4,260 nt of DNA from the IMG/VR virus record IMGVR_UViG_2529293063_000009; one strand, 5' to 3'. Position numbers and translations under genes: made by a program. This document shows, one piece after another, positions 442-4,260 of the stretch. The notes under the pieces were generated by a model. That model did not search any database and was not told the DNA's origin. It saw nothing but the letters and a program-made list of their open reading frames with translations. This DNA comes from a virus (taxonomy: Duplodnaviria; Heunggongvirae; Uroviricota; Caudoviricetes). Every line of letters starts with the position of its first letter. Within the stretch, counting starts at the first letter, position 1.

Positions 442-463
442 TCCTCACGCTCCATAAACGACA

Positions 464-483
464 AAACCGCCCGCAGGCGGTTT
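464..483 (-). terminator. Perfect 8-bp inverted repeat with 4-nt loop in the I-J intergenic spacer; terminator-like on the transcribed strand
   Basis: Plus strand 464-471 aaaccgcc, loop 472-475 cgca, 476-483 ggcggttt (exact reverse complement). On the minus-strand transcript the stem is followed by UUUUGUCGUUUAU. Position is between the I stop (502-504) and the J start (441). Confidence 0.3.
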
Positions 484-501
484 CACATAAAACATTTTGC
501 A

Positions 502-1173
502 TCAGCGACCAATCACCACAACCTGACCACCGTCCCCTTCGTCTGCCGTGCTGATCTCCTGAGAAACCACGCGTGACCCCACGCGCATTTCCCCGTACAG
601 AACAGGCAGAACATTGCCCTGGGCAACCATGTTATCCAGTGAGGAGAAATAGGTGTTCTGCTTACCGTTATCCGTTGTCTGTGTACGGGGAGTTCTGGCT
701 TTCGGTGCCAGCATCTGCGCCACACCACCGAGCACCATACTGGCACCGAGAGAAAACAGGATGCCGGTCATACCACCGGCCCCAATGGCTGCCCCCCATG
801 CTGCAAGGGTGGCTCCGGCGGTAAAGAATGATCCGGCAATGGCGGCAGCCCCCAGGACAATCTGGAATACGCCACCTGGCTTGGCCCCGGCGACTCTGGG
901 AACAATATGAATCACAGCGCCATCAGGCAGAGTCTCATGTAACTGCGCCGTTAACCCGGACGTGCTGACGTCCCGCCCGGCAATCCGTACCTGATACCAG
1001 CCGTCGCTCAGTTTCTGACGAAACGCCTGGAGCTGTGTGGCCAGTGCCCGGATGGCTTCAGCCCCCGTTTTCACACGAAGGTCGATGCGGCGACCAAATC
1101 GTTGTAAATCCCCGTAAAGGCAGATGCGCGCCATGCCCGGTGACGCCAGAGGGAGTGTGTGCGTCGCTGCCAT
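502..1173 (-). CDS. I: Tail tip assembly protein I (223 aa): N-terminal putative ubiquitin-like region, then a Gly/Ala-rich hydrophobic segment
   Basis: ORF track 223 aa MAATHTLPLASPGMARICLYGDLQRFGRR...; length and sequence match my recollection of lambda gpI. Start lies inside the 3' end of K in a different frame, as in lambda. An AGAGG sits 11 nt upstream of the ATG (weak SD). Confidence 0.92.
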   Translation of the reverse strand: MAATHTLPLASPGMARICLYGDLQRFGRRIDLRVKTGAEAIRALATQLQAFRQKLSDGWYQVRIAGRDVSTSGLTAQLHETLPDGAVIHIVPRVAGAKPGGVFQIVLGAAAIAGSFFTAGATLAAWGAAIGAGGMTGILFSLGASMVLGGVAQMLAPKARTPRTQTTDNGKQNTYFSSLDNMVAQGNVLPVLYGEMRVGSRVVSQEISTADEGDGGQVVVIGR

Positions 1174-1814
1174 TTGTCGGTGTACCTCTCTCGTTTGCTC
1201 AGTTGTTCAGGAATATGGTGCAGCAGCTCGCCGTCGCCGCAGTAAATTGCGGCGTGATTCGGCACTGATGAACCAAAACAGCACAGCAGCACATCGCCCG
1301 GCTGTGCCGCTGACAACGGCACCTGATACAGCCCCGTCGCCTCCAGATTATCCAGATAGAGATTCTGGCCGTTACGCCACCAGTCATCCTCACGATAAAA
1401 GTCCGGCATCTCAATCCCCGCCAGATGATAAGCATCCCGGAACAGTGTGTAACAGTCCGTCACACCGTGCTCAAAGCGCCGCCCGGTGAGATGCGGCACA
1501 CAGCGGAACTTATGAATCGTCCCCCGGCAGACCAGCCACCACGGCAAATCACTCTGCACCTGCAGCCGCCGGTCGGCCTCACTCAGCCAGGGCAGACCAC
1601 CGGGGTGGCTGTGGACCAGCGCCACAATCTCACCCTGCATTTCTGCCTGCAGCCAGTCTTCCGGCGACATACGGAAATACGCCTCCGGCTCACCGGAGAT
1701 ATTCACGCAGGGAAAATATCTTTCCCCCTCCGGCGTGCTTACCACGAAGCCGCACGACTCCGCTGGCGCACATCGCCGGGCGTGCGCCAGAATCGCTGAT
1801 TCTGTCTGTGTCAT
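1071..1814 (-). CDS. K: Tail tip assembly protein K, with JAMM/MPN-type metalloprotease motif and NlpC/P60 Cys-His-His peptidase domain; coordinates are the full 247-codon ORF, the classical 199-aa annotation would start at 1670
   Basis: ORF track 247 aa. HSHPGGLPWLSEAD (HxHx7Sx2D JAMM signature) at ORF residues 68-81; NlpC/P60-like Cys121 (DCYTLF), His187 (VPNHAAIY), His199/200. Internal Met49 at 1670 gives a 199-aa product, the lambda gpK length as I recall it. Overlaps I by 103 nt. Confidence 0.88.
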   Translation of the reverse strand: MTQTESAILAHARRCAPAESCGFVVSTPEGERYFPCVNISGEPEAYFRMSPEDWLQAEMQGEIVALVHSHPGGLPWLSEADRRLQVQSDLPWWLVCRGTIHKFRCVPHLTGRRFEHGVTDCYTLFRDAYHLAGIEMPDFYREDDWWRNGQNLYLDNLEATGLYQVPLSAAQPGDVLLCCFGSSVPNHAAIYCGDGELLHHIPEQLSKRERYTDKWQRRTHSLWRHRAWRASAFTGIYNDLVAASTFV

Positions 1815-2518: not shown

Positions 2519-2847
2519 CAGTTCACCACCTGTTCAAACTCTGCGCTGAACTCAACACGCAGCATACTGACCCGCGACGACCATTTTGCGCAGGTCACCT
2601 TTATCTGCCGCCACTCATAAGGCGGCGTCCACAGAAAGGATTTCCAGCCCCCGTGCTCTTCCAGAAACGACTCCAGTACCGTGGCCTCCTCACGGGAGAC
2701 AGAAAGCGTCACGCTGTACGTTTTCAGGTTGGCATTCAGCCCGGCAGGCGCTCGCTGAGAATAGCCATCACCAAAGCGCACCTTTCTTACAGAAGGGACC
2801 GAAGCCACATCCATACCGGGTTTCACTTTCCAGCGGAAGGTCTTCAT
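2518..2847 (-). CDS. M: Tail tip protein M (109 aa)
   Basis: ORF track 109 aa MKTFRWKVKPGMDVASVPSVRKVRFGDGYSQRAPAGLNANLKTYSV...; length and sequence match lambda gpM as recalled. ATGA overlap with the H stop; strong SD just upstream. Confidence 0.93.
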   Translation of the reverse strand: MKTFRWKVKPGMDVASVPSVRKVRFGDGYSQRAPAGLNANLKTYSVTLSVSREEATVLESFLEEHGGWKSFLWTPPYEWRQIKVTCAKWSSRVSMLRVEFSAEFEQVVN

Positions 2848-4260
2848 CGTCCACCTCCGGAGAACAGGCCACCATCACGCATCTGTGTCTGAATTTCATC
2901 ACGGGCACCCTTGCGGGCCATGTCATACACTGCCTTCATCATCTGTGGACCTGGCAGACCATTCGTACCGTCGTTCTGAATCACCACGTGATTGTTCTGA
3001 TTAAAATTAATGCCTTCAGCCCGCCGCATCTGCGCCGGACTTCCGGCACCGCCCACATAACCACCTTCCGCATAGCCCCGCATCAGGCGGTACAGGTTGC
3101 CGACACCAATCCGGCTGGTTGCCTCCTTCGTGAAGACAAACTCACCACGGTGAACAATCCCCGCTGGCTCATATTTGCCGCCGGTTCCCGTAAATCCTCC
3201 GGTTGCAAAATGGAATTTCGCCGCAGCGGCCTGAATGGCTGTACCGCCTGACGCGGATGCGCCGCCACCAACAGCCCCGCCAATGGCGCTGCCGATACTC
3301 CCGACAATCCCCACCATTGCCTGTTTAAGCAGAATTTCTGTCATCATGGACAGCACGGAACGGGTGAAGCTGCGCCAGTTCTGCTCACTGCCGGTCAGCA
3401 TCGCCGCCATATTCTGCGCAATACCATCAAAGGTCTGCGTGGCTGCACTTTTAACCTGCGACATACTGTCCGTGGCGCTCTCTTCCCACTCACTCCAGCC
3501 GGACTTCAGGCCTGCCATCCAGCTCCCGCGAAGCTGGTCTTCAGCCGCCCAGGTCTTTTTCTGCTCTGACATGACGTTATTCAGCGCCAGAGGATTATCG
3601 CCATACTGTTCCTTCAGGCGCTGTTCTGTGGCTTCCCGTTCTGCCTGCCGGTCAGTCAGCCCCCGGCTTTTCGCCTCAATGGCGGCCCGTTTTGCCCGTT
3701 GCTGCTGTGCGAATTTATCCGCCTGCTGCGCCAGCGCATTCAGGCGCTCCTGATACGTGACCTTATCGCCAAGTGCAGCCAGCTGGCGCTTGTACTCCAG
3801 TGTCTCATCTTTATGCGCCAGCAGGGATTTCTCCTGTGCGGACAGCTGGCGACGTTGTGCCGCCTCCTCCAGTACCGCAAACTGACTCTCCGCCTTCCAC
3901 AAATCCCGGCGCTGCTGGCTGATTTTCTCATTCGCTCCGGCATGCTTCTCCAGCGTCCGGAGTTCTGCCTGAAGCGTCAGCAGGGCAGCATGAGCACTGT
4001 CTTCCTGACGATCGCCCGCAGACACCTTCACGCCGGACTGTTTCGGCTTTTTCAGCGTCGCTTCATAATCCTTTTTCGCCGCCGCCATCAGCGTGTTGTA
4101 ATCCGCCTGCAGGATTTTCCCGTCTTTCAGTGCCTTGTTCAGTTCTTCCTGACGGGCGGTATATTTCTCCAGCGGCGTCTGCAGGCGTTCGTAAGCCTTC
4201 TGCGCCTCTTCGGTATATTTCAGCCGTGACGCTTCGGTATCGCTCTGCTGCTGCGCATTT
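2844..4260 (-). CDS. H: Tail tape measure protein H, C-terminal ~472 codons; 5' end lies beyond the window end
   Basis: ORF track gives 414 aa from an internal Met at 4088. I checked the same frame by hand from 4089 to 4260 and found no stop (...QADYNTLMAAAKKDYEATLKK...), so the gene runs off the window. Charged Q/A/R/E/K-rich helical sequence, then the Gly-rich hydrophobic block MVGIVGSIGSAIGGAVGGGASASGG; matches the C-terminal part of lambda gpH as recalled. Confidence 0.9.
   Translation of the reverse strand, partial: NAQQQSDTEASRLKYTEEAQKAYERLQTPLEKYTARQEELNKALKDGKILQADYNTLMAAAKKDYEATLKKPKQSGVKVSAGDRQEDSAHAALLTLQAELRTLEKHAGANEKISQQRRDLWKAESQFAVLEEAAQRRQLSAQEKSLLAHKDETLEYKRQLAALGDKVTYQERLNALAQQADKFAQQQRAKRAAIEAKSRGLTDRQAEREATEQRLKEQYGDNPLALNNVMSEQKKTWAAEDQLRGSWMAGLKSGWSEWEESATDSMSQVKSAATQTFDGIAQNMAAMLTGSEQNWRSFTRSVLSMMTEILLKQAMVGIVGSIGSAIGGAVGGGASASGGTAIQAAAAKFHFATGGFTGTGGKYEPAGIVHRGEFVFTKEATSRIGVGNLYRLMRGYAEGGYVGGAGSPAQMRRAEGINFNQNNHVVIQNDGTNGLPGPQMMKAVYDMARKGARDEIQTQMRDGGLFSGGGR
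2853..2858 (-). promoter_or_regulatory. Shine-Dalgarno GGAGGT for M, embedded in the final Gly codons of H
   Basis: Plus strand 2853-2858 acctcc is GGAGGT on the minus strand, 5 nt upstream of the M ATG at 2847; the same bases encode the ...SGGGR end of H. Confidence 0.6.

Follow-up and report, generated by a model that had tools for sequence, protein, structure and literature searches.

The stretch of DNA analysed here (the window, 4,260 nucleotides) shows, on its reverse strand, a tail-tip operon of the lambda type with the gene order H-M-L-K-I-J; the tail assembly setting given in the original prediction, made from the letters alone, is thus confirmed. The window is 97.3% identical in DNA sequence to phage lambda, and K and I are the phage lambda tail-tip assembly genes, carried in an E. 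coli prophage: a single residue (H140Y) separates K from the lambda reference protein and three residues (P49Q, S99P, I164T) separate I from its counterpart, and the lambda orthologues gpK and gpI have the operon order and a 103-nt overlap of K with I in common with the window's pair. I matches the lambda gpI chains 8iyk, 8iyl, 8k35 and 8xcg at 1.7e-139. The flanking H and J genes are about 5-6% diverged from lambda, so that the source must be a mosaic lambdoid prophage and not lambda itself. The exact K protein is found in at least 1000 E. coli contigs and the exact I sequence, taken from a GTG start discussed below, in 6. (A technical note: the 199-amino acid K of the lambda reference is due to a 1-nt difference in J02459/NC_001416, and is not biology.)

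Gene K (positions 1071..1814, minus strand) encodes tail tip assembly protein K, 247 amino acids with two peptidase domains, and gene I (502..1173, minus) encodes tail tip assembly protein I, 223 amino acids from its first ATG. By their ORF coordinates the two genes overlap at 1071..1173 (minus), where 103 nt read in different frames specify the C-terminal tail of K (including a predicted helix, 230-244) and residues 1-34 of I. Only 15.5% of sites vary in the overlap; where the sequence codes for K alone the figure is 33%, and for I alone 45%. Residues 1-34 of I are unchanged in 66 of the 70 distinct relatives, and the K tail occurs in 16 variants. Where does protein I begin? The starts of distant homologues line up with the second ATG, at M14. 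A GTG at V34, used in PV340536 and some E. coli records, yields a 190-amino acid form that would lack strands β1 and β2 of the ubiquitin-like domain described below; this start is rejected because the family as a whole conserves residues 14-33 (with G21 invariant and both L23 and G27 at 90% or more) and because most substitutions in the overlap leave the I protein unchanged. Relative to K, I is read in the -1 frame, and K-I fusion proteins exist in databases and PHROGs. A programmed -1 frameshift as their source was considered and discarded, there being no X_XXY_YYZ slippery site in the K frame. The fusions that were inspected are represented by one to three sequences each and their junctions, deletions or duplications are all different; rarity and differing junctions mark them as artefacts or decay products.

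The two domains of K are readily placed. Residues 3-104 (1503..1808, minus) constitute a JAB/MPN (JAMM metalloprotease) domain, matching Prok-JAB (PF14464) at 52.3 bits (cut-off 25; 6.2e-14), and residues 111-224 (1143..1484, minus) an NlpC/P60 (C40, papain-like) domain, matching NLPC_P60 (PF00877) at 48.3 bits (cut-off 23; 1.1e-12). The JAMM motif is defined as E-x(n)-H-S/T-H-x7-S-x2-D (PMC300881), and its presence in lambda K was already noted in 2003. The site is complete in the window: the catalytic Glu is E19 (1758-1760, minus), and the zinc-site motif H68-S-H70-x7-S78-x2-D81 (1572..1613, minus) occupies residues 68-81, HSHPGGLPWLSEAD, so that E19, H68, S69, H70, S78 and D81 are all there. 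The triad of the papain-like domain is C121 (1452-1454), H187 (1254-1256) and H199 (1218-1220), all on the minus strand. A complete JAMM signature fused to an NlpC/P60-type Cys-His-His peptidase is what had been read from the sequence, with K placed in both families; both Pfam thresholds are passed, so that the motifs are no chance matches, the predicted fold agrees, and the residues that had been named (H68, H70, D81, C121 and H187) are all correct by position. In 47 close relatives, E19 and the C121/H187/H199 triad are invariant, and H68, H70, S78 and D81 reach at least 90% conservation; the JAMM motif and the triad are both retained in the homologues of T1, phi1026b, Mannheimia, Psychrobacter and Synechococcus phage (S-H1), and the catalytic residues of both domains are kept in 6 distant phage or prophage lineages.

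The AF2 model of K (pLDDT 85.4, pTM 0.81) assigns its N-terminal domain an MPN fold. In Foldseek this modelled domain matches first P. furiosus JAMM1, both with SAMP2 bound and without it (5lda, 5ld9; E 3e-5, target-normalised TM 0.64-0.68), and then Rpn11, CSN5 and AMSH, and its best NCBIfam match is "desampylase", which falls below its threshold. Residues 14-97 of I (883..1134, minus) match Lambda_tail_I (PF06805) at 98.3 bits (cut-off 23.8) and are predicted to form a ubiquitin-like β-grasp domain (Ubl). The AF2 model has medium confidence over residues 10-94 (pLDDT 70-84) and arranges strands 14-19, 29-33, 59-64 and 87-93 around a helix at 37-57 in ββαββ topology; the 50 best Foldseek PDB matches are without exception ubiquitin-like proteins, SAMP1 (TM 0.72), MoaD, CysO, Urm1, ubiquitin and SUMO among them, with target-normalised TM up to 0.76. 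Searching the PDB with the Ubl profile (hmmsearch) finds ThiS/MoaD chains at E 0.28-0.48, which is not significant, and the β-grasp call therefore draws on the medium-confidence model and on hhalign, which aligns the Ubl profile with CysO (probability 74%, E 2.9e-5) and, over the last 20 columns only, with MoaD. The prediction that the N-terminus of I would prove to be a β-grasp domain is supported by these models, the nearest solved structures being ubiquitin-like throughout. P92, near the end of the domain, is conserved in 54 of 54 diverse homologues.

The sequence of elements originally described for I--an N-terminal region, then AGAKPGG, then a hydrophobic segment--holds, with AGAKPGG at residues 95-101. 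Alignment by hhalign and column counts make A95-G96-A97-K98-P99-G100-G101 (871..891, minus) the predicted processing region. G96 aligns with the penultimate Gly of CysO and of MoaD (both reference sequences verified against PDB chains), CysO providing the best profile alignment to the Ubl tail (ILPAVAGG in CysO, IVPRVAGA in I). On this alignment G96-A97 corresponds to the C-terminal Gly-Gly of both proteins; in the window's I the tail motif reads Gly-Ala, not Gly-Gly. Of the glycines that follow the Ubl, G96 is the best conserved across diverse homologues (52/54), and a small residue (A/S/G) stands at position 97 equally often (52/54); G101 is present in 47 of 54 and G100 in only 22 of 54. The cleavage site is accordingly ambiguous, since position 97 is Ala and G101 is also well conserved: we infer that the Ubl is most likely cut after G96-A97, with a cut after G100-G101 as the alternative. 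The S99P change, which turns the KSGG of lambda into KPGG, falls inside this putative processing region, and if cleavage is indeed at G96-A97, it is a substitution at P2'. Pro at this position is a rare natural variant, seen in 3 of 113 close clusters.

Beyond the Ubl tail comes a hydrophobic linker rich in Gly and Ala, residues 102-155 (709..870, minus), in which hydropathy picks out two membrane-helix-like stretches (19-residue Kyte-Doolittle mean 1.1-1.6). G108 within it is invariant (54/54 homologues), and the AF2 model has low confidence across it. The structural C-terminal domain, as delimited in virion structures, comprises residues 134-223 (505..774, minus) and forms a trimeric plug in the lumen of the tail tip (PMC10721106, PMC12617516); residues 137-152 of lambda gpI are a helix that clasps the C-terminus of gpH (PMC10721106). 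Lambda virion cryo-EM resolves only residues 134/135-223 of gpI, and gpK is not found in lambda virions by MS or cryo-EM (PMC10721106, PMC12617516). The gpI chain of 9e7m is 90 amino acids long, and lambda virion MS yields a single gpI peptide (9.87% coverage), matching only the 22-amino acid C-terminal tryptic peptide.

Has the Ubl been removed from the virion protein, or is it only invisible? The same module is found in a tailocin, the P. aeruginosa F-pyocin, as the distant relatives PA0639 (gpK-like) and PA0640 (gpI-like), and a 2026 preprint on that particle notes that cryo-EM cannot tell a flexible domain from an absent one. The Ubl might thus stay in place, disordered, or serve as a ThiS/MoaD-type carrier or a conjugated modifier, its nearest folds being the sulfur carriers MoaD and CysO. 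Retention in any of these forms is very improbable. By MS in the same preprint, the N-terminus of PA0640 is gone from mature F-pyocin particles and present in stalled tips; the sole gpI peptide from lambda virions is C-terminal; 126 more residues follow the Ubl tail, which therefore has no free carboxylate unless it is proteolysed; and the window has no E1- or E2-like gene, its long minus-strand ORFs being only H, M, L, K, I and J. Around the distant homologues, too, only tail genes are found. K-I is for this reason a processing module and not a conjugation system like Bil or type II CBASS.

Iyer, Burroughs and Aravind predicted in 2006 (PMC1779556) that TAPI contains a ubiquitin-like domain and that the JAB domain of TAPK processes TAPI; the original prediction refers to this proposal, and does so accurately. 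A Davidson-lab talk summarised in a 2025 conference report states that gpI loses its Ubl to cleavage by gpK, and only after gpI has engaged the tip complex (PMC12908700). The further claim that the substrates of both peptidases are poorly defined is thus overtaken for the JAB domain and remains true of NlpC/P60. According to the F-pyocin preprint, PA0639 is essential yet missing from particles, and its deletion leaves tip-less tubes, an assembly defect; the protease is not identified there, and PA0640 expressed alone in E. coli also loses its N-terminus.

The analysis itself establishes the families, the predicted folds, the intact catalytic sites, the alignment of the tail motif and how far the parts of the module are conserved and found together; cleavage of the Ubl and its dependence on K are taken here from this literature (the summary of a conference talk, and the F-pyocin preprint, which concerns a homologue). 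Combining them with the features of the locus, we favour, with a probability of roughly 0.8, the view that I is a Ubl-bearing precursor whose Ubl is removed by the JAB domain of K as an assembly checkpoint in the lambda-type tail tip. Protein I would be made in three parts: the Ubl (about 14-97), the hydrophobic Gly-rich linker and the C-terminal structural domain, which would become the trimeric plug that holds the tape-measure C-terminus inside the tip. K would be a non-structural assembly enzyme, its JAB/JAMM domain recognising the Ubl and cutting at the ubiquitin-style C-terminal tail; E1 and E2 would be dispensed with, the Ubl being fused in cis and removed once. If I is cut only when it is already docked to J and L, removal of the Ubl would constitute a checkpoint, after which the tip is licensed to attach to tape measure and tube. 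The exact cleavage site and the checkpoint logic are inferred; the interpretation as such is not new, having been predicted in 2006, and its experimental confirmation is under way.

What is the second peptidase of K for? With a triad that does not vary in close relatives and persists in distant ones, the NlpC/P60 domain is probably an active peptidase. Its fold matches (Foldseek) are Acd33800, MepS and 7v6u peptidases, the best of them murein endopeptidases and autolysins (MepS, Acd33800), and K also has a sub-threshold NCBIfam match to "putative phage cell wall peptidase". One might accordingly suppose that the peptidases of K hit other targets, with NlpC/P60 acting, for example, as a cell-wall hydrolase in infection or lysis, and that K and I are adjacent for mere co-expression. 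That is quite improbable in view of the non-detection of gpK in virions by MS or cryo-EM (PMC10721106, PMC12617516), the absence of PA0639 from F-pyocin particles and the tip-less tubes left by its deletion; moreover, no signal peptide is evident in the K sequence, and in every lineage examined its translation is coupled to that of I.

The division of labour between the two domains could also be the reverse of that proposed: NlpC/P60 might remove the Ubl, or make a required second cut in the linker, with JAB serving only to dock the Ubl. Most eukaryotic deubiquitinases are papain-fold enzymes, and the conservation of the triad would suit such a role, as would the two conserved glycine positions, G96 and G101, together with the invariant G108. 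Residues 98-133 of gpI are not resolved in virions (PMC10721106, PMC12617516). Some phages, moreover, have an NlpC/P60-only K flanking a Ubl-bearing I (Iyer et al., 2006; PMC1779556), and JAB may for that reason not be universally required. We nonetheless consider this arrangement unlikely: the JAMM site of K is as well conserved as the triad, the JAB-Ubl precedents PfJAMM1-SAMP2 and Rpn11-ubiquitin are the top fold matches, the nearest NlpC/P60 folds are peptidoglycan endopeptidases, and cleavage is attributed to the deubiquitinating domain of K (PMC12908700). If JAB is the enzyme that removes the Ubl, its contact with the Ubl could position NlpC/P60 on a second substrate at the tip, either the Gly-rich region of gpH or the gpI linker (residues 98-133). 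Held beside the gpI C-terminal domain as it clasps the tape-measure C-terminus, NlpC/P60 could be what cuts gpH to gpH* and gpHC, a cleavage whose protease is not known according to PMC12617516. This is a tentative suggestion, and a doubtful one.

How widespread is the pairing? Distant genomic context, drawn from contigs encoding homologues and from annotated phage records, places K directly upstream of I, with the two genes overlapping or touching, in Mannheimia, Psychrobacter, T1, phi1026b and 2004III; in Synechococcus phage S-H1 the three domains are all present, and K is divided between two ORFs. Among 50,697 phage records, gpI is counted in 1726, K-JAB in 1489 and K-NlpC in 1748, with near-identical genus breakdowns; the module is thus present in approximately 3% of sequenced phage genomes (~1,700/50,697 records), as well as in F-type tailocins. 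A search for the converse, an I without Ubl paired with a K without JAB, produced no clean counter-example, and the test of Ubl-JAB coupling is for that reason one-sided. The single candidate examined was S-H1, where tblastn had matched only the C-domain of I; its Ubl, JAB and NlpC/P60 are all present. (P0287, a 2783-amino acid repeat protein with 24 matched stretches, was dismissed as a spurious compositional match.)

The best structural matches for both partners come from the archaeal SAMP/JAMM1 desampylase pairs (P. furiosus JAMM1-SAMP2, H. volcanii HvJAMM1-SAMP1): SAMP1 for the Ubl of I, PfJAMM1 for the JAB domain of K. Common to these pairs and to K-I are the JAMM motif and a MoaD-like β-grasp with a small-residue tail. 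SAMPs, however, exist as free modifiers, which an E1 conjugates and which are later removed, and their tail is Gly-Gly; the Ubl of I is encoded as a fusion ahead of its "substrate", has no E1 and ends, in the window, in Gly-Ala. In CysO-Mec+ of M. tuberculosis and in QbsE-QbsD a JAMM peptidase trims a MoaD/ThiS-type carrier, so that its carboxylate is exposed or recycled for sulfur chemistry. As in K-I, a bacterial JAB enzyme there works at the C-terminal Gly-Gly of a MoaD-like β-grasp, but the outcome in K-I would be release of a structural tail protein. A parallel in logic is eukaryotic: the ubiquitin-ribosomal protein fusions UBA52 and RPS27A, which are processed by deubiquitinases, also carry an N-terminal ubiquitin in cis on a structural protein and lose it during the assembly of a large complex. 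The protease families and assembly contexts are different, and the analogy is one of logic, not homology of the fusions.

One can think of K-I as a bacterial-virus case of ubiquitin-style biology that does without conjugation, a Ubl fusion with its JAMM deubiquitinase-type enzyme, and as such it bears on the pre-eukaryotic origin of the pairing of ubiquitin with deubiquitinases. In practical terms, where the Ubl is cut and what the second peptidase does are relevant to the engineering of lambda-like tails and tailocins. A 200-amino acid "putative phage tail assembly protein", chain 25vf_9, matches the Ubl profile of I at 1.7e-12 and the window's I itself by phmmer at E 2.6e-18, and is probably PA0640. 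The F-pyocin motif corresponding to the GAKPGG of the window's I is GSKQSG.

The K-I pair is a real ubiquitin-like/JAB-peptidase module within a tail operon, and the original prediction read it rightly: Pfam and the predicted folds agree on it. The 4260-base window is a lambda-type tail-tip operon in reverse complement. Lambda and its close relatives match it over its full length at 97.3% identity (megablast, phage genomes), and the lambda annotation places on its minus strand the C-terminal part of H, the genes M, L, K and I, and the start of J, with Tape_meas_lam_C, Phage_min_tail and Phage_tail_L identified by Pfam in the neighbouring genes. The finding is lambda gpK-gpI re-described: the module was predicted in 2006 and its confirmation is in progress. 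Divergence from lambda is uneven (H 5.8%, J N-terminus 5.0%, M-L-K-I 0.3-1.0%), which makes the source a mosaic lambdoid prophage. Diverged blocks (1-457 and 2844-4260) stand against a lambda-like one (502-2847), which suggests recombination boundaries on both sides of the tip-assembly block. Exact copies of the K protein occur on 1000 contigs or more, most of them E. coli.

The JAMM motif of lambda K was already listed in 2003, its function then unknown (PMC300881). In 2006, Iyer, Burroughs and Aravind described a ubiquitin-like domain (Ubl) in TAPI (I) and JAB plus NlpC/P60 in TAPK (K), and proposed that the C-terminal glycine of the Ubl is where the JAB frees it (PMC1779556): this is the proposal on gpI processing by gpK to which the original prediction referred. 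In the virion, cryo-EM and MS find residues 134/135-223 of gpI as a trimeric plug clasping the C-terminus of gpH, the tape measure protein, and find no gpK (PMC10721106, PMC12617516); virion MS gives a single gpI peptide, whose 9.87% coverage fits no tryptic peptide but the C-terminal one of 22 residues. Davidson-lab data have gpK cleaving the Ubl off gpI only once gpI has joined other tip proteins (2025 conference summary, PMC12908700). In F-pyocin, stalled tips retain the N-terminus of the gpI homologue, mature particles lack it, and the gpK homologue is essential and non-structural (2026 preprint). Set beside this record, a gpI that is never cleaved, or a Ubl that acts as carrier or modifier, is most improbable; no E1 or E2 gene lies in the window, and a conjugation system is therefore excluded.

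K (1071-1814, minus strand, 247 aa) carries HSHPGGLPWLSEAD at residues 68-81; the predicted numbering of H68, H70, D81, C121 and H187 is correct on its ORF, and E19, S78 and H199 are the remaining residues of its two catalytic sites. Membership of the JAB and NlpC/P60 families, also predicted, is borne out by Pfam (Prok-JAB, 52.3 bits vs a cut-off of 25; NLPC_P60, 48.3 vs 23). The gpK structure prediction (47-sequence alignment A3) is confident (pLDDT 85.4, pTM 0.81). The best PDB matches of its N-domain are P. furiosus JAMM1, alone or SAMP2-bound, then Rpn11, CSN5 and AMSH; as modelled, the JAB domain resembles JAMM1, a SAMP-removing enzyme. Those of the C-domain are the NlpC/P60 enzymes Acd33800, MepS and 7v6u. 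A role of this second domain as the protease of the Ubl, or in a second cut, is unlikely, and a K directed at the cell wall is somewhat less likely still.

In the lambda reference (J02459/NC_001416) the sequence is 1 nt shorter at window position 1680, in K codon 45 (4259 vs 4260 nt); resequenced lambda genomes (PV340536 compared) have the window's length. Because of this shortening the first 48 K codons are out of frame in NC_001416, and K is consequently annotated there as 199 aa from M49, a form whose JAB domain is truncated at the N-terminus and lacks catalytic E19; the resequenced annotation gives 247 aa.

In I (502-1173, minus strand, 223 aa), AGAKPGG occupies residues 95-101 and is followed, as described at the outset, by a hydrophobic segment, Gly/Ala-rich, to about residue 155. 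Pfam finds Lambda_tail_I at residues 14-97 (98.3 bits, cut-off 23.8); with Pfam scores above cut-off for both proteins, the motifs of K and I are, on sequence grounds, no chance occurrence. The predicted beta-grasp fold of the I N-terminus is upheld by structure prediction (60-sequence alignment A2) and Foldseek: the model gives residues 10-94 a pLDDT of 70-84 and shows two strands (14-19, 29-33), a long helix (37-57), another strand (59-64), a short helix and a further strand (87-93); linker and C-domain have low confidence when modelled as a monomer. All 50 best PDB matches are ubiquitin-like beta-grasp proteins, headed by SAMP1 (3po0; E 4.4e-4, target-normalised TM 0.72) with MoaD, CysO and Urm1, then ubiquitin and SUMO; the modelled Ubl thus resembles the SAMP/MoaD branch. 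Public annotations start gene I at ATG M1 (223 aa), ATG M14 (210 aa) or GTG V34 (190 aa). Distant homologues align from M14. The GTG start is wrong, because residues 1-34 (window 1071-1173) hardly change among 70 distinct relatives, in which the overlapping tail of K does vary; the 190-aa form would lose the first two Ubl strands.

Where would the Ubl be severed? Among 54 diverse I homologues (alignment A1; 33-60% identity to the window protein) P92 and G108 are invariant, G96 is kept in 52, position 97 is A, S or G in 52, and G101 is kept in 47 but G100 in only 22; position 99 varies freely (Pro in the window, Ser in lambda; S99P is a rare variant). With hhalign, a profile built on the Ubl by itself (A4) aligns to M. 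tuberculosis CysO (probability 74%, E 2.9e-5); G96 is thereby paired with the first Gly of the Gly-Gly that ends CysO (IVPRVAGA vs ILPAVAGG), and the register with E. coli MoaD is identical (references verified against PDB chains 3dwg_C and 1fm0_D). From this register we infer, by homology, that the scissile bond should be ubiquitin-style, after A97; G100-G101, a lineage-level feature, is a second candidate site. In sequence-only hmmsearch of the PDB, A4 reaches ThiS/MoaD chains at only E 0.28-0.48, so the relationship lies at the level of fold and profile-profile comparison, not of plain sequence. In the literature we found no full paper giving an exact gpI cleavage site.

Across 47 relatives, conservation of the JAMM residues and Cys-His-His triad of K is complete or no lower than 90%, and the catalytic residues are kept in T1, Burkholderia phi1026b, a Drexlerviridae phage and Mannheimia and Psychrobacter prophages (27-49% identity). 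In all five distant neighbourhoods examined, K with both domains lies directly upstream of I, abutting it or overlapping by 1-58 nt. By tblastn, gpI is matched in 1726 of 50,697 phage records, K JAB in 1489 and K NlpC/P60 in 1748, and the three sets break down by genus in nearly the same way; with an E limit of 1e-3, a search of representative proteins yields 3030 members of the family.

The best-supported reading, to which we give a probability of about 0.8, is that I is a Ubl-bearing precursor cleaved by the K JAB once docked. Folds, catalytic sites, motif register and co-occurrence come from the present analysis; cleavage, K-dependence and timing come from the literature. The Ubl, we infer, would keep the hydrophobic, membrane-active part of I soluble or sterically shielded. 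The JAB domain would bind the Ubl and, after I docks with J and L, cut the ubiquitin-like tail; the C-domain, once freed, would clamp the tape measure; K would depart, as would the Ubl.

Synechococcus phage S-H1 was considered as a Ubl-less case and rejected, all three domains being present: a stand-alone JAB ORF (2433-2741), an unannotated NlpC/P60 ORF (2720-3112) and a 432-aa I-like protein (3054-4352) with Ubl and plug domain as its N-terminal part. K's two peptidase domains are evidently workable as separate polypeptides, unless the record has a frameshift. Databases also hold K-I, L-K and I-J fusion proteins (P0009, P0013, P0015, P0017, P0028, P0030; phrog_28576, phrog_35166). The E. coli examples comprise 1-3 sequences each, with junctions, internal deletions or duplications all different; programmed K-I fusion was rejected, the records being consistent instead with frameshifts, prophage decay or assembly errors. 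P0287, a giant repeat protein (2783 aa) matched by the I N-terminus in 24 stretches, was rejected as a poly-Ubl: its sequence is repetitive and the resemblance short and compositional (FGDFENLSRRMDLKVFADAIRA).

A Gly/Ala/Ser-rich hydrophobic stretch of gpH, IVGSIGSAIGGAVGGGASASGG (window 3200-3330, minus strand; about residues 700-725 of 853), is similar in composition to the linker that follows the Ubl in gpI. This Gly-rich region is the presumed place of the gpH to gpH* cleavage, a cut whose protease PMC12617516 gives as unknown. The 60-nt I-J spacer (442-501) contains, between the stop of I and the ribosome-binding site of J, a GC-rich hairpin (about 459-488, minus strand), AAACCGCC-UGCG-GGCGGUUU (MFE -16.1 kcal/mol, z = -2.15), with a U-rich stretch after it. 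The hairpin looks like a terminator or RNA-stability element, is unflagged by a consensus terminator scan, and differs from that of lambda by one base (459).
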